From a virus, in the IMG/VR virus record IMGVR_UViG_2795385563_000001: a DNA stretch of 64,000 nucleotides. One strand, written 5' to 3'. Position 1 is the stretch's first letter. Each line of letters begins with the position of its first letter. Below are positions 26,798 to 48,305 of the stretch, piece by piece. The position numbers were made by a program, and so were the translations under genes. The notes beneath the pieces are model-generated. The model searched no databases. It was not told the origin of the DNA and was given only the letters and a program-made list of their open reading frames with translations.

Positions 26798-27116
26798 GGC
26801 TCCCTTGCTTGCTGAACGATCGGATGGGGTCGATACGAAAGGACGAAGCGCCTCCAGCGCGCATATAGGGATAGGTCAGCGGATGGACTGCGTACGTGGC
26901 TCCTACCGCGTTGAGGTCGGCCCATCTTGTCGCCTCTTCTGCCGAATCAAACGGACCAACGAACCGCGGAAGGAATGGTTTTCCCCACGTGATATCGAGG
27001 ACGTATTTCTCATCGCCTGCCACTGTCGCTCCTGTGCTGATTGGGCGTTCGCACCCCAAACGGGTCAAGTTCAGCTCGACTGACGTCGAATCATCTTCAT
27101 TTACACGGTCATCCAC
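26781..27116 (-). CDS. Hypothetical protein
   Basis: 111 aa, just downstream of polA. Confidence 0.35.
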   Translation of the reverse strand: MDDRVNEDDSTSVELNLTRLGCERPISTGATVAGDEKYVLDITWGKPFLPRFVGPFDSAEEATRWADLNAVGATYAVHPLTYPYMRAGGASSFRIDPIRSFSKQGSHDARI

Positions 27117-29896: not shown

Positions 29897-30142
29897 ACAC
29901 CCGCTGCCGACAGTCTTTCTTGCATGTTGCCGACACGCCGATCGATGGCATCAAATCCGGCATCCGACTCGCACACTTGCAGGATCACCCAGTTTCAATT
30001 TCCTCGCCAACTCATTTTCGGCCGGCCGCTTCACCGCCCTTCTGCGCATTTTCGTTGGTGCTTTGTGCGCGCTGATTCATGGTGCGATCGTTTCGGTGCA
30101 CACGGTATCTCGCCGCTCTGACCTGCATAAATGGTCAACACG

Positions 30143-30434
30143 GCGTGCACTTCTCGGGTTACCTGCGGTTTTACGTTGGGGCCTCGTAAGTGGGGGGTGC
30201 CTCGGAGGGGCTCCGGATATACAAAATTGCCCACAGAGTGCATATTTCAATAAACCCCAGGTAGATATATGTAATTAGTTTAGCTAACAATTTGTTTTAC
30301 CCGTTACACGAGGCTATAGCCGATCTGTTCAAGTCCAGCGGCGTTGGTATATGTGCACGCGGTGGGGGTCTCCGAGGCACCCCCCACTTACGAGGCCCCA
30401 ACGCAAACCTGCAGGTAACCGCAGAAGTGCACGC
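30143..30434. repeat. Large imperfect inverted repeat (two arms of about 65 bp, about 88% identical) flanking a 162-bp spacer with an AT-rich core
   Basis: Left arm 30143-30207: GCGTGCACTTCTCGGGTTACCTGCGGTTTTACGTTGGGGCCTCGTAAGTGGGGGGTGCCTCGGAG. Right arm 30370-30434 is its reverse complement with a few mismatches. The core at 30225-30300 is about 35% GC and contains the TTAGCTAA palindrome. Confidence 0.8.
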
Positions 30435-30933
30435 AAAGTTGACAGAAACAGCAGGTCAGAGCGGCCAGATGTGGGGCGAGGCGAAACGATCGCACCAGAG
30501 AACGTGAAAGCGCAACGGCGTGTCATCGATTGATCACAGCGGAGGCGGCCGCCGTAGCTGGCAGCCGCCTCGGGCCCGTTGAATGGGCATTTGGAGCGCC
30601 CAAGCAGTAAATACCGCCTCCACCTGGCCATTGGGGACGTGACATGCAACATGTGGCACCTGTTGCCGGTTCCCAGACGGGTAGCGGCGACAGGTGCGTC
30701 ATCGCATTACCCCAGCTAGAGGGTCAATTCCTCACGACTTGTCGGACCTCAGGCGTACAACGACACACGCAAAACAAGCAATGTGTTGCACGTGCATCAC
30801 AACCGGCATTACGCTCACCAAGACGACGGCAGTTGCCGGTGTTGGAAACGTGGATGATTCGTAAATTCGACTCCCCGTTTCCGGTGCCGAACGACCTCGC
30901 CACTCGGACCGACCACTTCGAGGAGACCCGCCC

Positions 30934-32568: not shown

Positions 32569-33362
32569 CCGCCGCACCCTCGGACATGCTCGACGGTGCA
32601 CTGCCCGCGGCCGATACGCCCAATGTGCAGCCGATTGCGTTGCCGCGACCGGTGACTGCCCGTAGCGACGGCTTGATCCCGGTACGGGTCACTCCCCTTG
32701 TTGCACGTGACTCAGGTGAAACGGAGCCTGCCTCAGAGGCGGTCACCGAGACCGTCATGGACATGCAGCTGATCGTGGACTACACCAACGCACTGGCCAG
32801 ACGAACAGCCGCGAACGTCCTGGCGGACAACGTCGTTACGGTAGAACCTGCGCACGAGCACCCCAGACACGGCGCCACCTGCCTGCGCTGTGCCGTACTC
32901 GGGTCTTCGCGCAACGTGACCATGGGAACCACACTGCTGGAGATCCTGGCGCGCACCAATGCCGATGAGGATTGGAACTGCAGCCCGGAGTGCACGGACA
33001 CCAAAATCGCCTCGCGTCTGCGGCGGTTGGTGGTTAGTGCCTCATCGTTGCAAGACATCTACGGACCGTACTGGGGCCCGGTGATGCTGACCTGCTTGCG
33101 CATCGAGGCAGCAGACTTCGCGCTTCTACATCACCTGACCAAGAAATTCCAGCGCACCAGGCTCCTGGAGGTGAACACCCGCGAGACGCTCGCGGCGTAT
33201 CACCTGGCGACGGTGACCTGCCCATCCACCAGCGCAGTACGCGGGCCGGTGACACCGATGCTTCGCGGCGCGGTAGCCGTTCGCCTGGCAGTCGCCACGG
33301 GGATGGTCGCTATCGGCAAGTCACCTTCCTGGCTCGACCACCTGCCCGCCCCGGTGCTGTGA
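32565..33362 (+). CDS. Hypothetical protein
   Basis: 265 aa, ATGA-coupled to the previous gene. Confidence 0.4.
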   Translation: MTAAPSDMLDGALPAADTPNVQPIALPRPVTARSDGLIPVRVTPLVARDSGETEPASEAVTETVMDMQLIVDYTNALARRTAANVLADNVVTVEPAHEHPRHGATCLRCAVLGSSRNVTMGTTLLEILARTNADEDWNCSPECTDTKIASRLRRLVVSASSLQDIYGPYWGPVMLTCLRIEAADFALLHHLTKKFQRTRLLEVNTRETLAAYHLATVTCPSTSAVRGPVTPMLRGAVAVRLAVATGMVAIGKSPSWLDHLPAPVL

Positions 33363-34129
33363 ACGCTCACGCACAGCCGACCGACACGGTGCTACCAACC
33401 CCTGACGGATTCCGTCGGGTAGGCGAACTCTCCCCAGGCCACCATGTGTTTGATTCCAACGGCAGTCCGGCAGCAGTGTTGGCCGTCAACGACATTGGCA
33501 TGACAGCTCTGGTTCGCTTGCATTTCGACGACGGTGCCAAAGCCGACGTCACGGCCCAAGGCCTATGGCACGCACGTGACGAAGCCACCGGTGTCGGCGG
33601 CCTGTACCGCACCGCCGATATCGTGGCCAACCTGCAGCTTCCTGGAGGCGCTCCGCGGTGGACTGTCCCCACGGCGTCCGCTGTTGAATTTCCAGGCGCC
33701 TCTGAATTGCCGATCGATCCTCAAACGTTCGGGTCCGAGCTGCGACGCGGCGAAGCCACCGCCCCTGCGCTTCTTTCGCGGTACCTGACTGCGGACGTCT
33801 CACAGCGGCGCGAGACGCTCGCCGGTGTTATGGGTTCGCGGTCCAGCATCGGGGCGTCGGCTCCCTCCCTGGCGCTGGCCGCCGCCGGCTCACTCATCCG
33901 ATCATTGGGCGGTCTGCCGACATGGGTTCGGCATGGAGTCGGATACAGCCTTGTGCCGTTATGGGGGCGCGACGGCGAGTTGCGCCGAGAGATCGTTTCC
34001 GCAGAACACATTGCTGACCAGCCGTGCCATCAAGTCACTGTGTCCACTACTGACGGCCTGTACCTCACCGGTGGTGACTTCGTACTCACCCTCAGCGCCG
34101 CGCTGGCCGAACAGCGGGGTGCTGCGTGA
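33359..34129 (+). CDS. Hypothetical protein
   Basis: 256 aa, coupled to its neighbours. Confidence 0.4.
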   Translation: MNAHAQPTDTVLPTPDGFRRVGELSPGHHVFDSNGSPAAVLAVNDIGMTALVRLHFDDGAKADVTAQGLWHARDEATGVGGLYRTADIVANLQLPGGAPRWTVPTASAVEFPGASELPIDPQTFGSELRRGEATAPALLSRYLTADVSQRRETLAGVMGSRSSIGASAPSLALAAAGSLIRSLGGLPTWVRHGVGYSLVPLWGRDGELRREIVSAEHIADQPCHQVTVSTTDGLYLTGGDFVLTLSAALAEQRGAA

Positions 34130-36102
34130 CGGTTACCGACCTGGCGCCCGCGTCCGCTCCGGAGCAGATGGCTTTCCCGGTTGCCGCCGCGGTCAGCAAC
34201 GAGCCACGTCAGCTGCGCGGGTACCAGATCCAAGCCGCCGATGCAGTCTGCGATGCCTATAACCGTGGTGTCACGGGACCGGCGGTCGTATTGCCCACGG
34301 GCACTGGGAAGTCCAGCGTAATTGCCGAATTGGCACGCAGAGAGGTGACTGTCGGCGGTCGCGTGCTGCTGATGGCCCATCGCGACGAACTGATCAAGCA
34401 GATGGCCCAAGCCGTCACAGCGGTGAATCCGGCTGGTCCCCTCCCCTCCCTCATCGGTGGAGGGAATCGTGATGACCCAACCGCTCAGATCGTCTCGGCC
34501 ACAGTGCAATCACTGCAGACTGAGGCGGCACTAGCCAGAATCGGGCACCGCGACATCGTCATCGTCGACGAGGCCCACCACGCGCCTGCCCGGACCTACC
34601 GCAAGGTGCTCGACCATTTCACTGCTCTGGGCGCGCGCCGGGCCGGATTCACCGCGACGATGATCCGCCACGCACCCAATAAGAATGAGCCTGCGTTGCG
34701 GACCATTTGGGAAGAGGTGGTCTTCGAACGCGACATCCCCTGGGCGATTGAGAACGGCTTCTTGATAGCGCCAGTTGGGGTGACCGTCGAGCTTCCCGAG
34801 CTCGACGTATCCGCGTTGAAGGCCGGCAGCGGCGGCGACATCTCCGATGAGGTCGCCGAAGAGGCGATGATGCGCGAAACGACCCTGAACGCCACCGTCG
34901 AGGCGGTTCTGACTCGCACCGAGGGCCGCTCGTCCATCGTCTTTGGGGCCTCCCTGTTGCACTGTGAGCAGCTTGCAAAATCGCTCGTCGAACAAGGTGT
35001 GTCAGCTGAGGTAGTCGTCGGTGACACCAAAACCAAAGTGCGCAACGGCATCTACAACCGATTCCGCCACGGGACCACTCAGGTCTTGGTGACCGTCGAT
35101 GTACTCACCGAAGGCGCCGACTTCCCCCGCTGCGAAGCGGTCGTGCTGGCCAGGCCGACGCGTAGCCAGTCCCGGCTCGTCCAGTGCGTTGGGCGTGCCC
35201 TGCGGCCGCACACTTTCGAGGACGGGACGGTCAAAGACACCGCACTTGTCGTCGATCTCGTGGGCGCCGGGTCCCTGGGCCTGATGGTCAAGACCCGCCT
35301 GGACCCCGAGCACCGCGACAAGACTGATGAGGACGAAGAAGGGTTCGGTTGCTACTGCCAGCAGCCGTGCACAAGTGACGAATGCGACTTCTCCTGCACC
35401 GGAATAGGTTGCGAATGCAACTGCACGTGTGCGAGCGAGCCGTCTGAGTCAGGCCCGGCCAGCGATCCGGCGTCCAGTGTTCCCTGCACCTGTGCGTGCT
35501 CGCTGGCATTCGGGCTGTGCCGCTGCGGATGCGAGTGCGACCTGCACCGCATCGATCCGCTGCGCACCTTCGATCCGGTCACCGGAGAGATGACAGCGGC
35601 GGGGAAACAGCGACGGGGCGATTCGAGCTGGTCTCAGCGCACCTCCACCATCCGGTGGGTCCGCCACTCCCGCGGGATGGTCCGGACGGTCTACCGGTCC
35701 AACGGACACAAGGGCGTATTGCTGCTTGCCGACATGCGCGGTGTAGCCGGGACTGTGGCCGGACGGGATTGGGCCTTCGGATTCTTGGACAACTCGGTGC
35801 ACCGGATGTACTGGGTAGGCATCGACGGGCAGTGGACCGAACCCGGCCCGCGGTGCCATCTGCAAGGGCTGACCTTGTTCGAGGCAGACGCGCTGGCCCA
35901 GAGCATCTTTGCCGACCACATGCGCGACTCAACGCGTTCTGAACCCTCGACTGCGCAGGTCGATTTCGCCGCGCAGTTGGGAGTACCCGACGCCGGCGCG
36001 CTTGACCGCCGCGACCTGAGCGACATGATCGCGCTCGCTCAAGCCGAGTACTGGCTTCCCACATTCACACGCCCCGAAAGCGCCGTGGGAACCGCAGCCT
36101 GA
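34126..36102 (+). CDS. SF2 DEAD/DEAH-box helicase with Cys-rich insert and C-terminal domain
   Basis: Motif I LPTGTGKS. Motif II VDEAHH. Motif VI QCVGRALR. Then GFGCYCQQPCTSDECDFSCTGIGCECNCTCAS...CTCACSLAFGLCRCGCECD (about 25 Cys in 90 aa). Confidence 0.7.
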   Translation: MTVTDLAPASAPEQMAFPVAAAVSNEPRQLRGYQIQAADAVCDAYNRGVTGPAVVLPTGTGKSSVIAELARREVTVGGRVLLMAHRDELIKQMAQAVTAVNPAGPLPSLIGGGNRDDPTAQIVSATVQSLQTEAALARIGHRDIVIVDEAHHAPARTYRKVLDHFTALGARRAGFTATMIRHAPNKNEPALRTIWEEVVFERDIPWAIENGFLIAPVGVTVELPELDVSALKAGSGGDISDEVAEEAMMRETTLNATVEAVLTRTEGRSSIVFGASLLHCEQLAKSLVEQGVSAEVVVGDTKTKVRNGIYNRFRHGTTQVLVTVDVLTEGADFPRCEAVVLARPTRSQSRLVQCVGRALRPHTFEDGTVKDTALVVDLVGAGSLGLMVKTRLDPEHRDKTDEDEEGFGCYCQQPCTSDECDFSCTGIGCECNCTCASEPSESGPASDPASSVPCTCACSLAFGLCRCGCECDLHRIDPLRTFDPVTGEMTAAGKQRRGDSSWSQRTSTIRWVRHSRGMVRTVYRSNGHKGVLLLADMRGVAGTVAGRDWAFGFLDNSVHRMYWVGIDGQWTEPGPRCHLQGLTLFEADALAQSIFADHMRDSTRSEPSTAQVDFAAQLGVPDAGALDRRDLSDMIALAQAEYWLPTFTRPESAVGTAA

Positions 36103-36139
36103 CTGACCGGCCACGAACACCAGAAGGAGGAAATGACTG

Positions 36140-37135
36140 ATGTCGATGACACAAGAAGTGCGTGACGAAATGTGCCGCGCCACATCGATCCACCAAGGCT
36201 GCAGGCGCGCGCAAGTCGCGGCAATCGCGCGTCTGACCGGTGAGCTGCGTGTTTCTCGCACCGGCCTGATAGTGCATCTCGAAGTAAATACCGGCTCGGT
36301 CGCGCGGTACCTGCGCCGAGAGATCACGGCGCTGTACGGGCACAAAGTGAGCGTGACCGTCAACAATGAAACCGGTCTGCGTCGGGGCGCGCGCTACACC
36401 GTGCGCGTAACCGAAGGAGGCCGGGACCTGGCCCTGCAGATAGGTCTGATCGATCTACGCGGCCGACCGGTCACCGGACTACCCGCAATGGTGGTGGGTG
36501 GCTCACCGGGCGAAGTCGCCGCTGCCTGGCGCGGGGCCTTCATGGTCGCCGGATCGCTCATTGGACCGAGTCGTTCAAGCGCGCTGGAAATCAGTTGCCC
36601 CAGTCCAGAAGTGGCGTACGCACTCGCCAGCTGTGCCCGCCGCCTTGGTGTGCAGCCCATCGTGCGTACCGCTCGCGGTGTCGACCGAGTGACGATCCGC
36701 GACCACGACAACATCGGGGTGCTCCTGACCCGCCTCGGCGCCGAGGAGTCCCGGATATCCTGGGAGCGGCGCATCGCCCAGCGGGCAATGCAGGCAACGG
36801 CCATTCGCTTGGTCAATCTCGATGACGCCAATGCCCGACGCTCCGCGCGTGCAGCAGCCGCTACTGCTGCGAAAGTGGAGCAGGCGCTGGCGATCCTGGG
36901 CTCGGAGGCGCCGGAACACCTGGCGCATACCGGCCAGCTGCGTCTGGATCATCGAGAAGCCTCGTTGGAAGAACTGGGCCAGCTCGCACAACCGCCCATC
37001 ACCAAAGACGCCGTCGCAGGTCGGTTGCGCCGGCTGCTGACCATGGCTGATCGGCATGCCGCCGGTGAGGAGTTCGACGAGTTCGATCCGGAGCACCCTG
37101 CTGGTGAAACCGTCCGGCTCCTGGCGGGGGCGTAA
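36140..37135 (+). CDS. whiA: WhiA homologue (LAGLIDADG-like domains plus C-terminal HTH)
   Basis: Collinear and highly similar to M. tuberculosis WhiA over its full length: ...EITALYGHKV..., AWRGAFMVAGSLIGPSRSSALEISCPSPE, NLDDANARRSARAAAATAAKVEQALAILG, PPITKDAVAGRLRRLLTMADR. Confidence 0.8.
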   Translation: MSMTQEVRDEMCRATSIHQGCRRAQVAAIARLTGELRVSRTGLIVHLEVNTGSVARYLRREITALYGHKVSVTVNNETGLRRGARYTVRVTEGGRDLALQIGLIDLRGRPVTGLPAMVVGGSPGEVAAAWRGAFMVAGSLIGPSRSSALEISCPSPEVAYALASCARRLGVQPIVRTARGVDRVTIRDHDNIGVLLTRLGAEESRISWERRIAQRAMQATAIRLVNLDDANARRSARAAAATAAKVEQALAILGSEAPEHLAHTGQLRLDHREASLEELGQLAQPPITKDAVAGRLRRLLTMADRHAAGEEFDEFDPEHPAGETVRLLAGA

Positions 37136-37137
37136 CG

Positions 37138-37482
37138 ATGGGCACGCGCCGGATATGGGTCGGCATGGCGCTGGTGCTGGTGCTGGTGCTGGCAGCATGT
37201 GGAAACGGTCCAGCCGAGGGAAAGGTCATGGACACCGAGTACAGCCCTGCCTGGGTTCAATATCTTCCTGGCAGACCAGGAACGACGACATGCAGCGGAA
37301 ACCCGCCGCGCTGCAGTAGATCTCCCGGTACACCGCCACAGTTCATCTCTTACCCCGAGGCTTGGCGCCTGCGCTTGGACAACGGGAAAGAGAACGGATG
37401 GCGCGAAGTCAGTCGCGAGGAGTACGAGGCGTGCTCGCGCGATGAGCACTACCCGGAATGCGCGAAAGGTGGGACTCGATGA
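37138..37482 (+). CDS. Lipoprotein (signal peptide plus LAAC lipobox)
   Basis: MGTRRIWVGMALVLVLVLAACGNG. 114 aa. Confidence 0.5.
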   Translation: MGTRRIWVGMALVLVLVLAACGNGPAEGKVMDTEYSPAWVQYLPGRPGTTTCSGNPPRCSRSPGTPPQFISYPEAWRLRLDNGKENGWREVSREEYEACSRDEHYPECAKGGTR

Positions 37483-37748
37483 GTTACAACGAAGCCCTGC
37501 GCGTCGCTATCGCCAACGAACTATGCAGGCAACAGCCCCGCGGAGAAACAGCTGTTCACCCCAACGATATTGAAGACATCAGAGTGTGCTGGGACGAAGG
37601 CGACCACACGCGGGATGACGGCGAACAGCATTCCCCCAGATTCCAGGTCGAGGTGTCACTGTCGGGGTCCCGATACCCCCGCCAAATCAGCTCGGAGCGG
37701 ATGCTCACCGCAATGTTGCGCGCAGTGTTGATGATCGGAGACCAGTGA
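37479..37748 (+). CDS. Hypothetical small protein
   Basis: MSYNEALRV... The ATG overlaps the previous stop. Confidence 0.35.
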   Translation: MSYNEALRVAIANELCRQQPRGETAVHPNDIEDIRVCWDEGDHTRDDGEQHSPRFQVEVSLSGSRYPRQISSERMLTAMLRAVLMIGDQ

Positions 37749-38062
37749 TGAGTTGCCGATACGCGACCAAGCGCCAGTTTCCGACAAGCGAACTGGCCCA
37801 CGCAGGCGCCCAGGATATCCGCGCGACAGTGGAATCCGCGGGCCGCACGTTCCAGGCGCTCTACCCGTACAAGTGCCCCGACGACGCGGGGCACTGGCAC
37901 CTTTCGCACTATCCGCAGGGCTACGCCACCTGCTCATGGTGCCGACGTCGCGCAGAGGCCTGGTACGGCGGGACGTTCTGGGTGATGGCAGCCCACACCA
38001 GCGGCAACGAGCCTTGCCTGGCCGCCGGCGGTATGGGAAGCGAAGGAGGCGACTCCCTGTGA
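37745..38062 (+). CDS. Cys/His-rich small protein, paralogue of the N-terminus of the 42116 gene
   Basis: M.CRY..K..FPT......CPD...HWHL...PQG...C.WCR....AWYGG..WVMAAH is shared with 42116..43075. Confidence 0.4.
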   Translation: MMSCRYATKRQFPTSELAHAGAQDIRATVESAGRTFQALYPYKCPDDAGHWHLSHYPQGYATCSWCRRRAEAWYGGTFWVMAAHTSGNEPCLAAGGMGSEGGDSL

Positions 38063-38145
38063 GCGATGCGCCGATGCTCCACCAGACGCTGTGCACGGGT
38101 CGCTTTCCTGCGTCGGACCGTCAGCAGCCTGGAAGGACCAAGTGA

Positions 38146-38404
38146 TATGCAGCGAACCCCGTACCTGGTCACGCTGACCGAGAATGGCACCCAGATTGAG
38201 CATGCCGACGCCTATGCACACAACTCGGGTGTCCGTAAGTCTGAAGCTCTGGTGCGCAACTACGCCCGCAACCGTGGGATCGCATTGACTGGCGACAAGC
38301 CGACCCGTGTCGGCACCTCGTACACCCGCCGCTGGCACGCATCAGACTGCGAAGTGATGGTCACAGTACGGCCGCTGCTTCCTGAACCCAAGGCCACCTC
38401 ATGA
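38146..38404 (+). CDS. Hypothetical small protein
   Basis: The start was moved to ATG 38146 (MQRTPYLVTL) after AAGGA. Confidence 0.35.
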
Positions 38405-38697
38405 GTGTCGCCGAACAGTACCCGGCCCACACCGACACCAACGGCACCACCTGGTACCGGCCGTTGCGCCCCAAAGGGTTTGATTTCGATCAATGGGGCT
38501 GGACGTCTGACCCCACGCAGGCTGACCCGAGCTACGCCGTGGCTGCGGCGTCGTGCGCATTGACGGCGCCGGGGGCTTCATTGACGCCGGAGGACCGCGC
38601 AGCTGTCTTGGAGTTCCGGCAGTACCTCGCCGGTGTGTCCCTCCCATACTTGCCGGTTCTGGTCGACGTCCCCAGTCACATTACGAATCAAGGATAG
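38401..38697 (+). CDS. Hypothetical small protein
   Basis: 98 aa, ATGA-coupled. Confidence 0.35.
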   Translation: MSVAEQYPAHTDTNGTTWYRPLRPKGFDFDQWGWTSDPTQADPSYAVAAASCALTAPGASLTPEDRAAVLEFRQYLAGVSLPYLPVLVDVPSHITNQG

Positions 38698-38706
38698 GAG
38701 TGTCCG

Positions 38707-39582
38707 GTGAATCCACTGACGCAACAGGTCAAATACGAACTGAATCGGGTACTTCCGTCTTCCGGCGAAAAGCCTTCGACCAGACGTGCGCAGGTCTCAT
38801 CGATGCTGCGTTTCGGCGGCGGGTTCTTCAGTGAGGGCCGCCGCTGCTGGATCGACGCCGAGCTCGATACGCGCGAAGCCGCGGTGCTCTTGCGCGACGA
38901 GATCGCTCGGCTCTTTAACGCGACGCCGCGCGCGTTCGCTCTCTCGACTGGAACATTCAAGGTGCGCCAGATACATCGCGCCCACCACCTAGCGGTACAG
39001 GTGGGCCTGCTCAGCCCATCGGGTCGGCCGGTGATGGGGATGGCGCCGACGGTGGTCGCCGGCACGCGTGCCGACGCGGCAGCCGCTCTGCGCGGTGCAT
39101 TGCTGGCACGTGGGCAGATCACCACCCACGAGCTACGTCGCCCCCGACTGGAAGTGGTCTGTCCCAGCGCACCCGCCGCGATGGCTTTGATGGGCTTCGC
39201 TCGCCGCCACGGAGTGCAGACACAGATGCGCGAATATGTGCGCGATGGAGCGCCTGTTGACGTCTTCGAGATCCGGTCGCCCGCGACCTCATGCCACTCA
39301 TCGAAGCTGAGATCAAGCGCCGAGCCGAGGCCGCCAACGAATGCGCTACCAACATACGAGAGGCGGCGATGGCGTGAGCTTCTATCCCGGCGGGATGACA
39401 TTGCGCCCCTTGGGCGCTTGGCCCGGAGAGTTCCCCCGTACGCATATCCGTTCTCCTTTCTCCGCGCCGTTGAAGACAACTCTTGGGGAGCTCGATCGCG
39501 AGTTGTCGTTTCTCGGTTCGGGCAACTCGAATGCCCCGTCCGTTCTCGAGCTCGCCCTCCGAGAGCGCGACTTCCGCGTTGA
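38707..39582 (+). CDS. WhiA-like paralogue (LAGLIDADG-like region only); probable frame disruption or truncation near 39285, with no HTH domain
   Basis: AQVSSMLRFGGGFFSEGRRCWIDAELDTREAAVLLRDEIARLFN and AALRGALLARGQITTHELRRPRLEVVCPSAPAAMALMGFARRHGV parallel the WhiA N-terminal two thirds. After about 39285 the called frame is Arg/Pro junk. The -1 frame reads ...RDLMPLIEAEIKRRAEAANECATNIREAAMA*, which is WhiA-helix-like, and stops at about 39370. Confidence 0.5.
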   Translation: MNPLTQQVKYELNRVLPSSGEKPSTRRAQVSSMLRFGGGFFSEGRRCWIDAELDTREAAVLLRDEIARLFNATPRAFALSTGTFKVRQIHRAHHLAVQVGLLSPSGRPVMGMAPTVVAGTRADAAAALRGALLARGQITTHELRRPRLEVVCPSAPAAMALMGFARRHGVQTQMREYVRDGAPVDVFEIRSPATSCHSSKLRSSAEPRPPTNALPTYERRRWRELLSRRDDIAPLGRLARRVPPYAYPFSFLRAVEDNSWGARSRVVVSRFGQLECPVRSRARPPRARLPR

Positions 39583-40009
39583 TGGCCTCCCGCGAGCGGA
39601 TGCACGGACACAGCACCCGGGCGTGATTCTGCGTATCGAGTCGCGCTTCGGCCCTCTGTCGTATCCCGCAGCGAAGTTCACGACATGGCAGGACAACCTG
39701 CGCGCGATCACCCTGGGGCTCAATGGGCTCCGGCGTCTCGATCGCTACGGAATCACTCCCGGAAGCGAGCAGTACACCGGGTGGAAGCAGCTTCCGCCTG
39801 CCGGCCAGTCGAGTGTGTCGACGCCCAGCGCTGATGACGCCGAGAAATTCCTGCGCGATCTCACAGGCAACTACGACGCACCGCTGGACAAGGTGTACCG
39901 AACCGCACGGCGCGAGATGCATCCTGACCGCCACGATAACGACCAGGAGATGTGGGACAGGGTCGAGGCGGCTGGCGACGACCTGCGACGCGCCGGACGC
40001 CTGACGTGA
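39341..40009 (+). CDS. J-domain (DnaJ-like) protein
   Basis: C-terminal VYRTARREMHPDRHDNDQEMWDRVEAAGDDL carries the HPD motif. The N-terminal region is unassigned. The start is uncertain (39341 or 39395). Confidence 0.5.
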   Translation: MRYQHTRGGDGVSFYPGGMTLRPLGAWPGEFPRTHIRSPFSAPLKTTLGELDRELSFLGSGNSNAPSVLELALRERDFRVDGLPRADARTQHPGVILRIESRFGPLSYPAAKFTTWQDNLRAITLGLNGLRRLDRYGITPGSEQYTGWKQLPPAGQSSVSTPSADDAEKFLRDLTGNYDAPLDKVYRTARREMHPDRHDNDQEMWDRVEAAGDDLRRAGRLT

Positions 40010-40448
40010 TGGCGTCAGCATTCAGCAACCACCCGATACCTACTGATACTTGCCCGCAACGACGAACAGGGTCCGCACCCTACAACGCTGAAAGGACCGC
40101 CTCAGCTGTGAGTGACAAAGAGGCACTACCCATCGGCACCGGAGTGGTCGTCTACGGACGACCACTCCAACTCGGCGTCATTGAGAGCGGTCCAGAAGAG
40201 AATCTGATGGGGAACGTCGCATATCGGATCCGTTGCGAGGACGGCGAGATCGTCAGACGCACCGACTTTCGCCATCAGCTGGCATGTCTGGAAAGACGAC
40301 CATGTCATCACCGGCGGCCCAGGAATCTCACGCGAACGAATGGACCAGTATGCCGCCGAGCACGGTGGAGAGGTCCTCTACGGATGGCCAGAGGGTCATC
40401 CGGAAGCGCAGACACCGGCGCAGTGAACTGAAAGGACTATGAACCGCC

Positions 40449-41279
40449 TTGAGTGACAAGACCATTGCGCGCATCGCCGCGCTGCTGAACAAAGCGGACA
40501 ACACCGACAACGAGCACGAGGCCGACGCTTTTCTCAAAGCCGCTCAGCGCATCGCCACGCTCGAATCGATCGACTTGGCTAAAGCACGGGCACACACCCG
40601 GTCCAAAGAGTCGACGACGCCAGAACAGCGTGAGATTGTCATAGGCGAGCTCCGCCAGCGTGGACTGACGACGCTCATCGAGCTGTTCTTGGAGATCGCA
40701 TCAGCCAACGACGTGAGTGTGGCGATCGCGCACAACAACACTCGCGTCTACGCGCATGGATTCCGTGATGACATCGACGTGGTGCAGGCCCTGTACGTAC
40801 GGCTTCTCCCCCAGATGGCTGTGGCCAGTCGCGCGTTCCTGGCGCGCGGGGACTACCAGCGCGAGGAAGTGCCATATTCGGTCCTGGTTCGCGACCATTG
40901 CACTGGCGTCCAGGTCTGGGAGACGCGCTACAAGCCCATGGCCACGATCACTGCGCGACTGGAATTCCAGGCAGGGTTTGCGCGGCGGATCGGTAGACGA
41001 CTACGCGAGGCCAGACGCGACGCCGAGGCCGAATCGCACGCTTCCGAGAGCGGCCAGGCAGCCGAAGGAACATCCACGGAGCTCGTGCTCGCGGATAAAC
41101 GCAAGGCCGTTGCGGACTACTACAAGAAGTACTCGAATACCGGTCGGCGAACGCACCGCGGCTACCGACCCAACAATGTGAGCTTCGTCAGCCGCGACGC
41201 CGGCGACCGTGCTGGACTCCGCGCGAAGCTGGGTGCTGACACCGAGATCGCGCACGCCAAAGCCGCGTTGAGCGCCTGA
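40449..41279 (+). CDS. DUF2786-domain protein
   Basis: N-terminal IARIAALLNKADNTDNEHEADAFLKAAQRIA matches the DUF2786 signature. TTG start as called. Confidence 0.5.
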   Translation: MSDKTIARIAALLNKADNTDNEHEADAFLKAAQRIATLESIDLAKARAHTRSKESTTPEQREIVIGELRQRGLTTLIELFLEIASANDVSVAIAHNNTRVYAHGFRDDIDVVQALYVRLLPQMAVASRAFLARGDYQREEVPYSVLVRDHCTGVQVWETRYKPMATITARLEFQAGFARRIGRRLREARRDAEAESHASESGQAAEGTSTELVLADKRKAVADYYKKYSNTGRRTHRGYRPNNVSFVSRDAGDRAGLRAKLGADTEIAHAKAALSA

Positions 41280-41280
41280 T

Positions 41281-41808
41281 ATGTCGACACGCGACTTTCA
41301 GCGGCAGCGTGTCTACGACGCTGAGGTCCTTCTGCGCCGTCTGTTTGATAACGCCCGCACGGGACAGAACCCCGTTGTTACGCTCGGAGGCGTCACTCTC
41401 ACCCTGCCGCCAGAGGCCTTGTTCGGGGACATACAGAGCGCCGAGCATTACGCCAACCAGGTGCTTGCCCTACCCAGCGTCCGAGACCGTTTCGGTGAGG
41501 CTGCCAAAGTCCGGGTCCGGCGGCGTCAAGGCCTGCACCGCGCCCATTACGAACCACTGCGAGCGGTCATCGCAATCCCCGACGATGTGCGCTGGGCATT
41601 ACGTGAGCTGGTGCTGTTACACGAGCTGGCCCACCATCTTGACCCGTCCGGGAACGACGCACATCACTGTGTACACGGTCCCCAGTTCGTCGACACCTAC
41701 TTCACACTGTTGGAACTAGTAATGGCTCCCGAAGCCGCACTGGCGGCACGGATCATCTTCCGAGACAGCGACATTGTCCACTCAACCTCTCAAATTGCGG
41801 AGGCATGA
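41281..41808 (+). CDS. Putative HExxH zinc metallopeptidase-like protein
   Basis: LVLLHELAHHL with a downstream His/Glu. The start is 2 nt after the previous stop. Confidence 0.45.
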   Translation: MSTRDFQRQRVYDAEVLLRRLFDNARTGQNPVVTLGGVTLTLPPEALFGDIQSAEHYANQVLALPSVRDRFGEAAKVRVRRRQGLHRAHYEPLRAVIAIPDDVRWALRELVLLHELAHHLDPSGNDAHHCVHGPQFVDTYFTLLELVMAPEAALAARIIFRDSDIVHSTSQIAEA

Positions 41809-42119
41809 TGAAATACCCCGCGGATTTCGTGAGCACCGACCTCGGCTGGTGCCGCATCCATCGCGGGCACGAACTGGTCCGAGGCGAATTACTCGCCGAC
41901 CTGGCAGAGCACGGCAGCAGCTCACCCCGCTGTGGCGAGCTGCTCATCGTCAAGCAAGTCCACCTGTACTACCAATCGCGCATCAAATGGTGCGGTCGCC
42001 ACGGCGATCCGTGTGACAACGAAGGCGAATGGCACGGTCACTGGTTCGCGGCTCGTGCGAGCACCGACACAGCGTTCACCCTGGTCTACTGGGGACGACC
42101 TGAGGAGGCAGCCGCGTGA
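41805..42119 (+). CDS. Hypothetical small Cys/His-containing protein
   Basis: 104 aa, ATGA-coupled. Confidence 0.35.
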   Translation: MMKYPADFVSTDLGWCRIHRGHELVRGELLADLAEHGSSSPRCGELLIVKQVHLYYQSRIKWCGRHGDPCDNEGEWHGHWFAARASTDTAFTLVYWGRPEEAAA

Positions 42120-43075
42120 CATGCCGCTACAAAGCCAAGCCCGACTTTCCGACACGGAAGGCCGCACAGGACGGCGCAGACGACCTCAAGCGCGAGCTGG
42201 ATGCGGAGTTCCAAGGACGCATTCGGCAGCCGTGGTATCCCTTCCCTTGCCCGGACGGCAACCACTGGCACTTGGCGCTCACCCCTCAGGGACCCGCAAT
42301 CTGCCCATGGTGCCGGCTTGTGAGGACCGCGTGGTACGGCGGCCTGGACCACCAGACGTGGGTGATGGCTGCTCACGCCGGGATCGACGGGCGTCCCTGC
42401 CCAGCTGTAACCCTCCCAGCGCTGCGCATGATCCCATTCACCGCCGCCCGTCCTGTCTGGATTCTCGGCTTTGAGGACGTGTTGAGCCGGCATCGCTCGG
42501 GCGCACCGGGGGCGTCTTGCGAGATCGACTTGGCGACGCAAGGTGCGACTCGGTATCTCGAGCCTTGGAGTCAGCGGTGGTCACCGGAGCTGTGCCGCTT
42601 GATCACCCGCGCAGTGAGTATCGGAGTCGACGTGCGCTGGTTGGTTCTGTCGCGCCCCGGTGTCGCGGTCCTCCGAGCATTTACCGACGCCTTGGCAGGC
42701 GACTTGCCGGACATACCGGTCCTCACCGAGCTCGACATGCCGCCCGAGTATCGACTTCCGCGTCACGGATTCACCGGTACGAGCATCGAGCCAGGCTGGG
42801 AATCTGACGCAGTCATGGCGTTGGTTCCGCAAGTCGCTCCCCTGCTCTGGACGCCAAGTTTTCAGTGCGCCTGCGATTCGGAATTCGCTTGCGGCAGTGA
42901 CCGCGTCGATCGGACCACGAAAAACGTAGTGCGACGGCGCGAAGGATCAACCACGGTGATCACCCCGAAATCCATCCGCGGTCGGATAACCTTCATGACC
43001 GATCACGACATGAAGACGATCGCCAGATGGGTGCGCTCGAACGATCACGAAGAAGGGCCCCGTGAGAGCTGTTGA
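42116..43075 (+). CDS. Hypothetical protein with N-terminal Cys/His domain paralogous to 37745..38062
   Basis: See the paralogue above. A 200-aa C-terminal extension is unique. Confidence 0.45.
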   Translation: MTCRYKAKPDFPTRKAAQDGADDLKRELDAEFQGRIRQPWYPFPCPDGNHWHLALTPQGPAICPWCRLVRTAWYGGLDHQTWVMAAHAGIDGRPCPAVTLPALRMIPFTAARPVWILGFEDVLSRHRSGAPGASCEIDLATQGATRYLEPWSQRWSPELCRLITRAVSIGVDVRWLVLSRPGVAVLRAFTDALAGDLPDIPVLTELDMPPEYRLPRHGFTGTSIEPGWESDAVMALVPQVAPLLWTPSFQCACDSEFACGSDRVDRTTKNVVRRREGSTTVITPKSIRGRITFMTDHDMKTIARWVRSNDHEEGPRESC

Positions 43076-43352
43076 TCGCGCTGACGCCGATCCTCCCCGC
43101 GAACTCGACGTCGTGAAACTCTTGAGCGCGCTGTGCACCAAAGACGAGCGCGACGACGCCATGGAATATGCGCATTGTCGCGATGTGACTCTGCCTGCGG
43201 GCAGCATCGGAACGGTGCTCGTGATCACCGAGCTGCCCGGTAAACCCACGGGCTATTTGATCGAGTTCTCCGACGACGACGAAGGCGCAGCCATCGCGAT
43301 GCCGTGGCTGACCGTCGGCGACTTCGAAGTCATCGAGCGGCACTGCGACTGA
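43062..43352 (+). CDS. Hypothetical small acidic protein
   Basis: 96 aa. Confidence 0.35.
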   Translation: MRAVDRADADPPRELDVVKLLSALCTKDERDDAMEYAHCRDVTLPAGSIGTVLVITELPGKPTGYLIEFSDDDEGAAIAMPWLTVGDFEVIERHCD

Positions 43353-43384
43353 AGCGCAAGCGCACATCGAACCAGCGCTACTCG

Positions 43385-43864
43385 TCATCCGTAGTGCGCA
43401 AGGAGCAGCCATCCCGGTTCATCCTGGGGGTGAACACCCAATGCGTCCAATGCTTCTCGTAGCTTGTCGTCCCACACTTCGGCGATGCGCCGCTGATCCA
43501 GCTCGGCAAAGTCGATTCTGCCGGCCAGATCAGACGCATCAACGGTGGCTTCCCACACACGTAACACGTAACTGGCGCCCTCGTCTTCGGGGTAGCCGGA
43601 GCAGGTAACGCCAACGCCCTCAATGCACCGCGGCGTGTTTGGCCCGCCGAGATTCCATTGATCGCTAAATCCGGAATCCTTCAGCCGCTGCTCTAGGTCG
43701 GGCTGGCCCCAGCCATCATCATCATCATCATCCGGGACATTCAGTGCAGCCCAACTCGGTTTCCATCTGCCGTGTTCGTCGACGTCATCGGTGAAGGTCC
43801 ACTCATGCTCGCCACCGCCGAGCGGGACGCCATAGGCCAATGTCGCGTACGCGTATCTACCCAC
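43385..43864 (-). CDS. Hypothetical acidic protein
   Basis: 159 aa. PDDDDDDGWG is encoded by a (CAT)6 tract. Confidence 0.4.
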   Translation of the reverse strand: MGRYAYATLAYGVPLGGGEHEWTFTDDVDEHGRWKPSWAALNVPDDDDDDGWGQPDLEQRLKDSGFSDQWNLGGPNTPRCIEGVGVTCSGYPEDEGASYVLRVWEATVDASDLAGRIDFAELDQRRIAEVWDDKLREALDALGVHPQDEPGWLLLAHYG

Positions 43865-44061
43865 AGTTATTCACTCGTTTCTGTCGTTGTTCGTGATCAA
43901 TCGAAGATGGCGGCCATCAGGTGGATCCTGACGCCCGAGAAGCGCGATCGCGTCGTCGCGCAGGCTGCGGCCAACCGGGGACAGCAGGCGCGGATCACGC
44001 GCGGCAAGTCGCCGAGCTGATGCGAGCACTTGCGTCTCCAGCCAGTGCGCGCCCTGGGTGC

Positions 44062-44628
44062 TCAGGTCAGCTCCTGCGCTCCGGGGTACTCTCCCCTGCC
44101 TTCAACCTCCGGGTGCGGCTCTTTGGCGATCTGTGCTGCTGTGCGCAGACCCACCACCGAGTAGACGATGACAGACAACCCCCACAGGACCAGCATCGCG
44201 AGCCGGATTGGGTCGAGGTACTCGGGGCCAGGCGTTGGGATTATCAAGGCCAGTGCACCGACGGTGGCATACAGCGTCAACGCCAAACCGCGGGAGTTCC
44301 ACAGCCATTGCCGACTCGCGAGGAACGGACCAGCCAGAAGCCCGATACTGAATGCGAGTAAGAAAGCGCACCAGCCCAACACAGCCGAGAAATCATGAAT
44401 CATGTCGTAGTTCGACATACCGAAGCGGTCACACCCCACACGCCGCGGGTCATCGTACTCAAGTGCGCAGAGGTAGCCACTAGTTCGTGTCCGTACCAAC
44501 CAGCCCAGAGCGATGAGCAGTCCGGTCACCACGCTGAATACCATCGACGCGATGGCCAGGTTCGAAGCGTCGGGATCGCCTCCTTCGCCGCTGGATCCGC
44601 TTGGAACAATGATGGGAATCGGAATCAC
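44062..44628 (-). CDS. Polytopic membrane protein
   Basis: About 5 predicted TM helices. Confidence 0.45.
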   Translation of the reverse strand: MIPIPIIVPSGSSGEGGDPDASNLAIASMVFSVVTGLLIALGWLVRTRTSGYLCALEYDDPRRVGCDRFGMSNYDMIHDFSAVLGWCAFLLAFSIGLLAGPFLASRQWLWNSRGLALTLYATVGALALIIPTPGPEYLDPIRLAMLVLWGLSVIVYSVVGLRTAAQIAKEPHPEVEGRGEYPGAQELT

Positions 44629-45029
44629 TTCGACCTGCTTTCATGTGTGCTGTAAACGTATGGGCCAGCGCCAGAATCGACGATGACAGGTATTCCCGAG
44701 GCGTCCGCCCGCCTGACGCAGTCCCAGGTACCGCGAGAATCTGCGTCAGGAAAAGCAAGGCAGATGTCAGCGGCGAGGTCTACCATCTCTTGGTTTCGCA
44801 TGGGGCCCGCGGCTTTACCGTGTACTTGCCACGCCGCTGGATGGGGTTCGACTACGAACCCCATCCCGTCGGCGATCGCCGCGGCGATGATGTCTGCGCC
44901 CCCGTATGGGCATTCACCGTGGACAACGGTCACTTCGTGGGAGTTACGGCCAGCGGAAGCACTGCGCAAGGCGGTATCGATCCTGTCACGTTCTGTCCAG
45001 CGGCGGCTGCCGGTTATCAATATGCGCAT
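44625..45029 (-). CDS. SLOG-superfamily / DUF2493 (DprA-like Rossmann) protein
   Basis: MRILITGSRRW...VVHGECPYGGADIIAA...GPMRNQEM...GIPVIVDSG follows the DUF2493 pattern. Confidence 0.55.
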   Translation of the reverse strand: MRILITGSRRWTERDRIDTALRSASAGRNSHEVTVVHGECPYGGADIIAAAIADGMGFVVEPHPAAWQVHGKAAGPMRNQEMVDLAADICLAFPDADSRGTWDCVRRADASGIPVIVDSGAGPYVYSTHESRSK

Positions 45030-45328
45030 CAGCCCTCTCCTGCAATCTGTTTCGTAGAAACACTTTCACCTTCGTCCGGTTCGGACACCGCGCGGCATAG
45101 CAGCTCTTTGAACACGGAGTCCGCGACGCCGTCCAGAACCATTCGAACCACGAAATCAACGTCGCCGTGGTCGGCGCCGCAATTCTTCTTGTGGCACTCA
45201 GGAAACCGCCATTCCACAGCCGCGCGACTTAGCGCGGTGGCATAGATGGCCTGCTGGACGCGCGGCCACAGCGCCATATCACCAGTGGACGTGGTGACAG
45301 CCGTCACGCTCTCGGCGTCGCCAGTCAT
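45029..45328 (-). CDS. Hypothetical protein (start moved to internal ATG that overlaps the upstream stop)
   Basis: MTGDAESVTAV... ATGA junction with the 45325..45675 gene. Confidence 0.35.
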   Translation of the reverse strand: MTGDAESVTAVTTSTGDMALWPRVQQAIYATALSRAAVEWRFPECHKKNCGADHGDVDFVVRMVLDGVADSVFKELLCRAVSEPDEGESVSTKQIAGEG

Positions 45329-45675
45329 GCTGTATCTGCAGTGGTTTCGCACACCCTCACCACGCGACGAAGGCCACCGCGGGTCCGGTATTGCATCACA
45401 ACTTCGAACGTGAGGAAGAGGGCCACAACGAAAATCGCTGCCAGCGTTGGGAGAACGACACCGGTGAATGCCAGTAGAGCTGCTTCGATCGCAACGATGC
45501 CGGCCTGGCTGACCGCTCCGATCCGACGCCAACGCCGATAGTGCTGAGCTTCCGCATCACTACGAATCTGGGAGAGCATCAGCGTCGCACGTTCACGAGG
45601 CGTCAGCCGGAAAAATGATGCCGAGACGGTGCCGTCGACGTACGGCACCACGCGCGACCTCGCTCGGGCGCTCAC
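45325..45675 (-). CDS. Small membrane protein (2 TM)
   Basis: IVAIEAALLAFTGVVLPTLAAIFVVALFLTF. Confidence 0.35.
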   Translation of the reverse strand: MSARARSRVVPYVDGTVSASFFRLTPRERATLMLSQIRSDAEAQHYRRWRRIGAVSQAGIVAIEAALLAFTGVVLPTLAAIFVVALFLTFEVVMQYRTRGGLRRVVRVCETTADTA

Positions 45676-46025
45676 TTTTCGCCGCCTCCGATGGCGACCG
45701 GCTGCTTGTGGTCCCAGTCGCAGCTGCCGAAGACGCCGTTGACGTGGCTCCAGTGGGGGTCACCGTCATATGTGTGCTCGAAGCACAGCACCTTTTCCTT
45801 GCCGCCGGGCAGGAGCATCCAGTACGTGCTGAACCCGCCGTCGAGATTCGGCGTTCTAGTCTCGGGTGCAGGTGTCGGCGTGGACGTCGAAGACGTTGCA
45901 GTGGTTGGCTCGAACAGCCCGAGAATTGGACTTTGATCGCTGGCACTGCACGCCGCTGTGGACACGGCCACACCGCTGATGACAAGCGCGGCGGCCGCAA
46001 CGCGGACCATTCCCCGGCGGCTCAT
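45672..46025 (-). CDS. Putative lipoprotein
   Basis: Signal peptide ending ...AVSTAAC. Thr/Pro-rich linker. Confidence 0.45.
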   Translation of the reverse strand: MSRRGMVRVAAAALVISGVAVSTAACSASDQSPILGLFEPTTATSSTSTPTPAPETRTPNLDGGFSTYWMLLPGGKEKVLCFEHTYDGDPHWSHVNGVFGSCDWDHKQPVAIGGGEK

Positions 46026-47446: not shown

Positions 47447-48115
47447 CTAGGCGGCCGTTGTCGTCCACCACTGGAACTGGCTGATGGCAGCTTCACGCAG
47501 GAAGCCGATCACCTGCTCGACGCTGTATCCAGCCGCGCCGTATCCCGAGTTCTGATCGTCCAATGCCCGAAGGACCTTGGCATCGTTGTCGTTGCTGGTG
47601 GGGACCTTGATGGCCACACCAGTAACGGCCTGTTCGCCTCGCTGGAAGCAGGTGACCAGCTCGTTGCGAATGTTCTTCTGCATGATCGTGATGTTCTTGG
47701 CCTCCGTGAACTGACCGGTGACCGGGTCGAGCACGATGTAGTCGACGGTCGGAGCGATAACTTGATCCTTTTCGTACTTGCTGTTGCGCGGTCCGATCCC
47801 CAACAGGCGGAACAGGATCGGCTTGTTGAAGTGCTCATCGGGGATGCCGCCTCCACCGCTGTTCGGGATCACACCGATGTTGGGCGCAACGGCGCTGACG
47901 CCCGCGTATCCGGCCGGTAGGCCGACTGGTGCAGCAGTCGGAACTGCAGTCGCTGCCACGGGGGCGGCGGCAACGGGCGCTGCTGCGGGAATCGCCGCTG
48001 CGGGTGGTGCGGCGGGAACTGCAGCCACGGGTGGTGCTGCTACCGGAATCGGGGCCGCCGGAGCAGCCGGGACGCCGGCCACGGGGGCTGCGGAGGGAGC
48101 AATAGGAGCGGTCAT
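47447..48115 (-). CDS. Ala/Pro-rich N-terminal protein with globular C-terminal domain
   Basis: (PAA/PVA)n for about 80 aa, then a conserved-looking domain. Confidence 0.4.
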   Translation of the reverse strand: MTAPIAPSAAPVAGVPAAPAAPIPVAAPPVAAVPAAPPAAAIPAAAPVAAAPVAATAVPTAAPVGLPAGYAGVSAVAPNIGVIPNSGGGGIPDEHFNKPILFRLLGIGPRNSKYEKDQVIAPTVDYIVLDPVTGQFTEAKNITIMQKNIRNELVTCFQRGEQAVTGVAIKVPTSNDNDAKVLRALDDQNSGYGAAGYSVEQVIGFLREAAISQFQWWTTTAA

Positions 48116-48305
48116 GATGGTGCCTCTTTTCAGGTGCTGTTGAAGTTGCTGTTGCTGTTGTATGTCGATCCAGATGCATCTTCGCTGGCTGGCTTGCCCG
48201 TCTTAGACGCTTGAGATCCGCACCGACTGCATAACTATTTACACTGCAAGTACGACAGGCAACTGAGACGGCAAATGCCGGTTTCCTCGGCGTGTCGCGG
48301 CGGCG

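Follow-up and report, generated by a model that had tools for sequence, protein, structure and literature searches.

An element-borne pair of WhiA paralogues in Mycobacteroides abscessus subsp. bolletii and the truncation of the second copy by a deletion

WhiA and WhiB2 are essential cell-cycle regulators of mycobacteria and are regarded as drug-relevant, and mobile-element copies of WhiB are well known. The DNA described here, 64,000 nucleotides held as IMG/VR virus record IMGVR_UViG_2795385563_000001 and called the window below (the whole stretch that was analysed, at its full length), lies wholly within a large integrative element of Mycobacteroides abscessus subsp. bolletii and carries two genes of the WhiA family behind a helicase gene, in an operon of replication type. 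The first copy, WhiA1, is full-length. The second open reading frame (ORF) begins as a divergent paralogue, WhiA2, and has lost its remainder to a deletion. That an integrated element, two WhiA paralogues and a deletion origin of the truncation occur together here is, as a joint claim, close to certain. The features of the locus, in positions of the window, are these:

34126 to 36102, plus strand: SF2 (ResIII/DEAD) helicase, directly 5' of whiA1 and in the same operon
36140 to 37135, plus strand: whiA1, element-borne WhiA paralogue of 331 amino acids (aa) with all three Pfam WhiA domains
37138 to 38697, plus strand: five small genes between the whiA copies (37138-37482, 37479-37748, 37748-38062, 38147-38404 and 38401-38697)
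38707 to 39276, plus strand: whiA2 remnant, codons 1-190 of a divergent WhiA paralogue, by homology to full-length WhiA2
39274 to 39275, no strand: deletion junction with the 2-bp microhomology CG; 1,192 bp missing relative to the M. abscessus element L006 (8610-9801)
39277 to 39582, plus strand: out-of-frame tail of 101 codons, which covers the 104 nt left at the end of the DUF7457 gene and runs on into the 211-aa gene
39374 to 40009, plus strand: 211-aa gene (phrog_9210) with its true start, GTG, at 39374, overlapped over 209 nt by the remnant tail

A preliminary description of this DNA, made from its letters alone, had taken the gene at 36140 to 37135 for a full WhiA, and this is borne out. 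Its product matches WhiA_N (PF10298) at 66.3 bits (cut-off 23.4 bits), LAGLIDADG_WhiA (PF14527) at 65 bits over positions 2-92 of the 93 in the model, and the helix-turn-helix (HTH) domain HTH_WhiA (PF02650) at 70.8 bits. It covers the whole of the NCBIfam equivalog TIGR00647 (positions 1-304 of 304, 265.7 bits against a cut-off of 44.1 bits) and aligns without a gap over 305 residues to Streptomyces venezuelae WhiA (PDB 8DY9_I, 8DY7) at 54% identity (E 1e-96 to 2e-96). Residue roles are taken from the mutagenesis-validated S. venezuelae protein (PMC10243135), whose numbering is used throughout. WhiA1 retains R174, R177, R181 and R185, with which the N-terminal domain contacts the DNA backbone, R221, L222 and N229 of the long helix, and R266, L274, K287, R293 and R295 of the HTH, including the base-specific K287 and R295; among the residues checked, only Q115 and F225 are changed. 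Its recognition helix, PPITKDAVAGRLRRLL, is almost that of chromosomal WhiAs. The gene is under strong purifying selection (ratio of nonsynonymous to synonymous substitution rates, dN/dS, 0.05-0.13 against sister elements, compared with 0.09-0.10 for the helicase), and its product is probably a functional WhiA-type DNA-binding regulator.

The conserved housekeeping synteny of whiA is rapZ-yvcK-whiA-gap-pgk-tpiA (PMC4255298), and a whiA orthologue that belongs to M. abscessus itself has been scored essential (PMC10470612, Table 5). As the preliminary description had observed, whiA1 stands outside that context. There is no rapZ or yvcK gene nearby and no rapZ-yvcK-whiA-gap synteny in the window, and the neighbours are the helicase upstream and, downstream, a lipobox protein (MGTRRIWVGMALVLVLVLAACGNG, gene 37138-37482), small unknown genes and a DnaJ-like gene; the small genes that separate whiA1 from whiA2 are not the same in all sister elements. 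The canonical locus was seen for contrast in Tsukamurella. The best plasmid match of WhiA1 (57%), Tsukamurella "plasmid 5", was considered as an example of a plasmid WhiA and set aside, being actually a chromosomal rapZ-yvcK-whiA-gap locus.

Chromosomal WhiAs of different orders share about 75% identity with one another, but WhiA1 shares only 54-57% with them, and there is no Mycobacteroides chromosomal WhiA among its best 120 matches; its identity to the host copy is bounded indirectly by these comparisons. WhiA2 is 41-43% identical to chromosomal WhiAs. A neighbour-joining tree places WhiA1 in a clade of 16 element-borne sequences (100% bootstrap), apart from the chromosomal Mycobacteriales WhiAs, and WhiA2 in a clade of its own (100%) that joins the WhiA of Mycobacterium avium plasmid pP3-3a (89%). 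PHROGs holds no family for either protein. Judged by sequence, both element genes are extra paralogues, distinct from the housekeeping whiA.

The second ORF (38707-39582, plus strand, 291 aa) follows whiA1 after a gap of 1,572 bp. It had been described as starting like WhiA and then losing similarity, and it does exactly this: in BLASTP it is 34% identical to WhiA1 over about 190 aa (E 2e-13), and similarity to WhiA ends after residue 190. The profiles agree, with WhiA_N at 28.1 bits, LAGLIDADG_WhiA at 26 bits over model positions 2-52 of 93 only, no HTH_WhiA, and TIGR00647 at 62.6 bits over positions 2-175 of 304. The BLASTP and TIGR00647 scores rule out a second protein unrelated to WhiA.

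The closest database relatives of this ORF (P0002-P0008) are 315-322 aa long, have three WhiA domains and are 74-92% identical to it over the shared part. When the 322-aa P0002 is searched against the window by tblastn, residues 1-190 match at 96%, and no HTH remnant, nor any other match beyond residue 190, appears in any frame. The junction can be read directly and is delimited by blastn, with window 38400-39275 corresponding to L006 7734-8609 and window 39274-46000 to L006 9802-16581. Lost with the missing segment were WhiA2 codons 191-322, the intergenic spacer after them and, from the 840-nt DUF7457 gene, 736 nt.

What follows residue 190 does not behave as a protein-coding extension. Homologues of the 101-codon tail were found neither in the protein database search nor by tblastn with P0002. 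Its GC content by codon position is 0.65/0.66/0.58, against 0.71/0.52/0.72 in the homologous part, and the overlapped 211-aa gene shows in its own frame a coding-type GC bias that the tail lacks. In the AlphaFold model the predicted local distance difference test (pLDDT) score is 82-97 for residues 1-190 and 31-51 for residues 191-291. The modelled remnant stops after the last beta-hairpin, and the cut falls inside the N-terminal fold, whose terminal helices are gone. The retained part differs from L006 by a synonymous divergence (dS) of only 0.034, and the deletion is therefore recent. On record are 3 contigs with the truncated sequence, represented by three NCBI protein accessions and also by Logan assemblies; several hundred M. 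abscessus contigs, 5.2-Mb chromosomes among them, carry the full-length cluster. By these sequence comparisons, the truncated copy is a lineage-specific remnant of a recent illegitimate deletion and not an evolved decoy, because the gene is full-length elsewhere, the fold is broken and the tail is nonsense. The remnant is most likely non-functional.

Full-length WhiA2 has 315-322 aa with an HTH (317-322 aa in the related M. abscessus elements). In sister elements the intact protein has all three WhiA domains, including a complete second LAGLIDADG-like domain, and P0002 scores 122.9 bits on TIGR00647. The M. abscessus elements L006, L007 and L008 and that of Mycobacterium sp. D16Q14 (L009/L014) share one gene order: helicase, WhiA1 (331-333 aa), 2-5 small genes, WhiA2 (315-322 aa), DUF7457 and the 211-aa gene. 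The D16Q14 proteins are 71% (WhiA1) and 48% (WhiA2) identical to those of the window. In L021, WhiA1 and a full-length WhiA2-like gene stand in tandem with a 4-nt overlap, and linkage of the helicase to whiA1 is kept in L006, L007, L009, L019, L021 and L023. WhiA2 has a dN/dS of 0.24-0.32; both paralogues are under purifying selection, and the pair is ancestral and conserved. The DUF7457 gene (277-288 aa) always follows intact whiA2 (L006 9066-9905, L007 11031-11864, L009 13425-14291), a constant linkage that may be meaningful.

Intact WhiA2 retains R266, K287 and R293. Its recognition helix is altered by R295W and a V to Y change, two of the N-terminal-domain arginines that contact the DNA backbone are lost (R177A, R181V), and there is a 7-aa deletion in the first subdomain and another in the long helix. 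The intact protein is therefore likely, as far as these substitutions can tell, to have a changed DNA specificity or geometry.

Some sister elements carry WhiA paralogues that are naturally without an HTH. In L019, L020 and L023-L026 a 232-242-aa protein made up of only the WhiA2-type N-terminal domain is encoded directly after whiA1, its start overlapping the whiA1 stop by 4 nt. Three of these loci, all translationally coupled to whiA1, are:

L019, 10990 to 11688: N-terminal-domain-only WhiA
L023, 10001 to 10729: N-terminal-domain-only WhiA
L026, 1878 to 2603: N-terminal-domain-only WhiA

A profile search adds P0251 and P0252 (227-228 aa), so that the set (P0131-P0134, P0251, P0252) spans 227-242 aa. 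The 232-242-aa proteins diverge to 60% identity with their length retained, and the set overall is conserved down to less than 50% identity, with dN/dS of 0.29-0.42 at dS of 0.4-1.1. Downstream of these genes the search for an HTH remnant gave chance-level matches only (E 0.4-0.9). For P0131, modelled by AlphaFold (pLDDT 91), the best structural superposition is with the N-terminal domain of WhiA in 8DY9_I and 8DY7_I, at template modelling (TM) scores of 0.80-0.85. The proteins of the set include the last helix of the domain and end there, about 30 residues beyond the point at which the window copy is cut. On TIGR00647, P0131 (40.5 bits) and P0133 (33 bits) stay below the cut-off. The N-terminal-domain-only proteins no longer have the arginines that contact the DNA backbone, nor the residues that face the dock domain of the RNA polymerase beta-prime subunit, and DNA binding is therefore unlikely. 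Members come from Mycolicibacterium: M. mageritense (WP_230022547.1), M. austroafricanum (WP_036372446.1) and M. canariasense (WP_062656863.1), three species that are also carriers of tRNA arrays (PMC5966550). An HTH-less WhiA partner is thus realised elsewhere in the element family, and the window copy is not one of them: its homology ends at 190, it bears a 101-aa tail, it lies 1.6 kb from whiA1 and it occurs in one lineage.

The mobile nature of the window, proposed in the preliminary description, rests on its left border, where two genes begin the element:

1 to 1197, minus strand: tyrosine integrase at the left end of the element, with tRNA-Arg(CCG) and argS just outside the window
1330 to 1602, plus strand: HTH_17 excisionase-like gene, next after the integrase

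The window edge is exactly the stop codon of the integrase gene. Outside it, in the DNA of a sister assembly, lie tRNA-Arg(CCG) and the core genes argS-lysA-hom-thrC-thrB-rho, so that tyrosine integrase, excisionase-like gene, tRNA and core genes adjoin as in tRNA-integrated elements. Exact-protein matches place the window in a 529-kb chromosomal contig (FVBZ01000004.1), about 4.5-68.5 kb from the contig end. The contig stops about 4.5 kb to the right of the window, within a tRNA array, and the element is larger than 68 kb. It is missing from the M. abscessus species-representative genome, and in a scan of representative genomes WhiA2 was found only in Mycobacterium sp. D16Q14.

No related element was found among phage records (nucleotide search with 34000-42000) or plasmid records (30000-45000), and IMG/VR scans with WhiA1 and WhiA2 as queries gave no matches. 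The large ORFs of the window include no phage structural gene, which leaves a classical prophage unsupported; Rfam detects no RNA family and there are no tRNA genes inside the window. Because of the integrase-tRNA border, the gene content, the right-hand tRNA array, the lack of a phage structural gene and the lack of a close relative in these collections, the element is an integrated plasmid-like or ICE-like (integrative and conjugative element-like) one. It belongs to a family of polA / SF2-helicase / EccB-EccC / tRNA-array type in fast-growing mycobacteria.

The consensus of M. tuberculosis WhiA, established by chromatin immunoprecipitation sequencing (ChIP-seq) and IDAP-seq, is GACACGCC (PMC13473873). 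The window has 10 copies of it, where 5.8 ± 2.3 are expected. Five of the 10 sites (six if one doubtful small ORF is ignored) fall in the intergenic 8% of the window (binomial P 6e-4), and none of 300 permuted 8-mers reached six intergenic sites, in a test that was chosen post hoc, after the genes had been seen, and that concerns few sites and the M. tuberculosis consensus. The candidate sites are:

1284 to 1291, minus strand: GACACGCC between the integrase and the excisionase-like gene
1696 to 1703: GACACGCC 5' of the RNase H gene
5865 to 5872: GACACGCC 5' of the gene starting at 6054
29932 to 29939, plus strand: GACACGCC 36-48 bp 5' of the polA start
30517 to 30524, minus strand: GACACGCC in the 1-kb non-coding region before the helicase-whiA operon
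48289 to 48296, minus strand: GACACGCC 5' of the 222-aa gene 47447-48115 (minus strand)

At the polA site the 8-mer is found at the same position in L007, L009 (D16Q14) and L021, and in L019 and L023 just its GACAC core. The site at 48289 recurs at the same position in L006 (18818), L009 (19427; D16Q14) and L019 (13863). Both are islands of identity in diverged sequence, between elements with saturated synonymous sites. In the intergenic region of the polA operon, a scan for the sigma-70 consensus gave no match.

Taken together, the reading we favour, and hold to be likely as a whole, is that of an element-borne WhiA pair whose second member has been truncated by deletion in this lineage and whose first member activates GACAC(GCC) promoters of the element itself. 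WhiA1 would act as a WhiA-type activator at such sites in the promoters of polA, of the integrase/excisionase region and of the 222-aa gene, and the conserved GACACGCC sites are the main support for its acting there. It would probably partner the host WhiB2 and sigma-A; reliance on WhiB2 is proposed because a search for ORFs with the WhiB-like signature (Cys motif plus G[VIL]W[GA]G) gave no candidate in the window. Replication and excision genes of the element could thereby be tied to, or uncoupled from, the WhiA/WhiB2 cell-cycle circuit of the host. Where WhiA2 is intact, it may serve as a modulator, either because its DNA specificity differs or because its N-terminal domain contacts other proteins. 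The narrower claim that WhiA1 works with host WhiB2 at GACAC(GCC) promoters of the element has, taken by itself, a little less than an even chance of being right.

Several points weigh against this reading. The motif support is indirect, was sought post hoc and concerns few sites, and the 5-mer GACAC is under-represented across the window (142 occurrences against 184 expected). The conserved promoter islands could serve another factor, or host WhiA alone, and a WhiB-like gene could lie in the part of the element beyond the window. HTH-less WhiA paralogues are under selection in sister elements, and the remnant itself still begins at the native start, occupies its place in the operon and has 190 residues that fold well (pLDDT 82-97), from which some residual protein-binding activity is conceivable.

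A more far-reaching version of the favoured reading can be put forward only tentatively. In it, these widespread mycobacterial elements would possess a private WhiA system in which WhiA1 reads canonical GACAC(GCC) sites in replication and excision promoters, and a second, rapidly evolving protein, WhiA2, has lost its DNA-binding domain more than once, through selection in Mycolicibacterium elements and by accident here. With its N-terminal domain WhiA2 would modulate or counteract the WhiA-WhiB2-sigma-A complex, coupling replication or transfer of the element to the host division cycle or hijacking that cycle.

It is also possible, if rather doubtful, that the element WhiAs serve the element mainly by re-programming the WhiA/WhiB2 regulon of the host, with its genes for septation, DNA replication and ribosomes. 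Phage and plasmid WhiB-like proteins that act on the host provide an analogy, and WhiA1, keeping the GACAC-reading residues, should recognise host WhiA sites. The M. tuberculosis WhiA/WhiB2 regulon moreover spans replication and division genes (PMC13473873). The conserved WhiA-consensus sites in the element's own promoters speak against the host regulon as the main target, yet the two readings are compatible and not mutually exclusive.

The preliminary description had gone further with the second copy, suggesting that, without a DNA-binding domain, it could act as a dominant-negative or decoy WhiA, and that host division or sporulation-like programmes are manipulated. Such a decoy would titrate WhiB2 or other WhiA partners, and it draws on the N-terminal domain of WhiA being the WhiB-binding domain (PMC10243135), on residues 1-190 being kept in frame from the native start, and on the conserved, whiA1-coupled N-terminal-domain-only paralogues. 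For the copy in the window the idea fails on the origin of the allele, a recent deletion that also wrecked the neighbouring DUF7457 gene; on its presence on three contigs against hundreds for the full-length form; on a cut about 30 residues short of the natural boundary, with loss of the terminal helices of the second LAGLIDADG-like unit; and on a nonsense tail that overlaps the next gene. A functional decoy in the window, and likewise any residual decoy activity of the remnant, is improbable. What survives of the concept is that such proteins exist in Mycolicibacterium sister elements, and therefore the decoy idea stays alive for the family and not for the window copy.

Much less probable still is a truncation produced by assembly or sequencing in a strain with full-length WhiA2. 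All carriers are short-read draft assemblies with the element at a contig end, which would suit such an error, but the junction is clean with both flanks aligning, and the same junction and 291-aa product recur in separate NCBI assemblies (GCA_900130485.1, GCA_900131555.1) and in independent Logan assemblies of ERR337826 and further samples. Finally, that the window is chromosomal backbone with whiA1 as the organism's only whiA can practically be dismissed: the element does sit in a 529-kb chromosomal contig, but its integrase, excisionase-like gene and tRNA-Arg junction beside core genes, its missing housekeeping synteny, its absence from the species-representative genome, the 54-57% identity of WhiA1 to chromosomal WhiAs and the essential whiA orthologue of M. 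abscessus all contradict it.

Beyond the WhiA locus, the window contains the following genes:

27101 to 29896, minus strand: family-A DNA polymerase (polA), divergent from the helicase-whiA operon, an arrangement kept in all relatives examined
53182 to 57465, minus strand: EccC-like triple FtsK ATPase of 1,427 aa, a type VII secretion/transfer component
57486 to 59366, minus strand: EccB, a type VII secretion/transfer component
48565 to 49020 (minus strand), 51525 to 52301 (plus), 59688 to 60293 (plus), 44625 to 45029 (minus), 14499 to 15239 (minus) and 13664 to 14536 (minus): defence-like accessory cluster
62940 to 63215: XRE gene near the right edge of the window

A possible primase-polymerase, RNase H, an exonuclease and several FtsK-like ATPases are also encoded. 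Two further ATPases of FtsK/SpoIIIE type are found at 15710-17767 (plus strand) and 49017-50090 (minus strand); with EccB and the EccC-like protein they suggest a transfer apparatus of type VII or FtsK kind, like that of mycobacterial conjugative plasmids. The accessory genes (Macro, GmrSD_C nuclease, NT5C nucleotidase, YspA/SLOG, SPFH and methyltransferase) resemble defence or anti-defence genes, and the D16Q14 relative additionally has NAMPT and NUDIX genes (L009 19771-21002). Just beyond the right edge of the window, where the contig ends (L012 12221-16497, equivalent to window 64176-68452), 14 tRNA genes are packed into 4.3 kb, and an HNH endonuclease is encoded there too.

The roughly 1-kb non-coding gap between polA (minus strand) and the helicase-whiA operon (plus strand) holds an imperfect inverted repeat of about 128 bp (arms 30080-30207 and 30370-30497, 81-89% complementary, 162-nt spacer), flanked by two GACACGCC sites; this region could be an origin or a regulatory hub. 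Upstream of the helicase, a 256-aa gene (33359-34129) has weak PHROG matches to two kinds of family, large terminases and DnaC-like loaders, in their N-terminal portions. In D16Q14 and L021 the helicase is a single longer gene (897 and 986 aa, respectively), with no separate gene of about 256 aa before it; from these gene lengths only, we infer a fusion of the two. The helicase of the window has a Cys-rich stretch at residues of about 395-470, and in Gordonia phage Doggs the counterpart of the 211-aa gene bears the annotation DnaJ-like chaperonin.

Elements of this kind are frequent in clinical M. abscessus, and the intact second copy is present on hundreds of assemblies. If the element WhiAs read the host-factor motif, host division, replication or drug tolerance could change, and the natural HTH-less WhiA domains could provide ready probes or inhibitors of the WhiA-WhiB2 interface. 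The "decoy" of the window is a deletion scar, in strains where three genes are automatically annotated as whiA. RefSeq already names these element genes "DNA-binding protein WhiA". A literature search on WhiA at plasmids, prophages and tRNA-array elements found no paper on a mobile-element WhiA, a WhiA pair or an HTH-less WhiA.

Among known systems, the chromosomal WhiAs (S. venezuelae 8DY7/8DY9; M. tuberculosis Rv1423) share with WhiA1 the three domains and the DNA-contact residues including K287 and R295. They differ from the element copies in lying in the rapZ-yvcK-whiA-gap context, whereas the element whiA1 is downstream of a helicase and in a separate clade. The plasmid WhiAs of M. avium pP3-3a (CP085281), M. 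chimaera AH16 (CP012886), M. intracellulare (CP084587 and LT703506) and Mycobacterium sp. JS623 pMYCSM02 are, like the element pair, extra paralogues among hypothetical genes on mobile mycobacterial replicons. Unlike the pair, they are 35-49% identical, have other neighbourhoods and no helicase-polA link, and are single copies as far as seen. On pP3-3a (NZ_CP085281.1) there are two separate tblastn WhiA matches, and Tsukamurella tyrosinosolvens NCTC13231 (NZ_LR134455.1) has a second, divergent WhiA (36% identity) beside the canonical rapZ-yvcK-whiA locus; extra WhiA paralogues may be commoner in Mycobacteriales than recognised.

The N-terminal-domain-only WhiAs resemble the window copy in belonging to the WhiA2 lineage, in lacking an HTH and in standing downstream of whiA1 in the helicase operon; their domain is complete, they overlap whiA1 by 4 nt and they have no nonsense tail. 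The wider element is reminiscent of two published systems, the XRE plus HNH "tRNA array units" of the M. abscessus complex (Morgado and Vicente 2018, PMC5966550) and the giant linear plasmids of M. avium (PMC12803027), with which it shares XRE, HNH, a dense tRNA array, type VII components and a host range of the M. abscessus complex, M. mageritense, M. canariasense and M. austroafricanum. Neither source mentions WhiA, and the present element is integrated at tRNA-Arg and not a free plasmid.

A last parallel is offered by the WhiB-like (Wbl) proteins of phages and plasmids. They form a different protein family from WhiA, and the window has no ORF with their signature. The WhiB of mycobacteriophage TM4, for example, interferes with host WhiB2 and septation. 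Wbl proteins on phages have also been mentioned elsewhere (PMC13013590). Like the element WhiAs, the phage and plasmid Wbl proteins are mobile paralogues of one half of the WhiA/WhiB cell-division activator pair.

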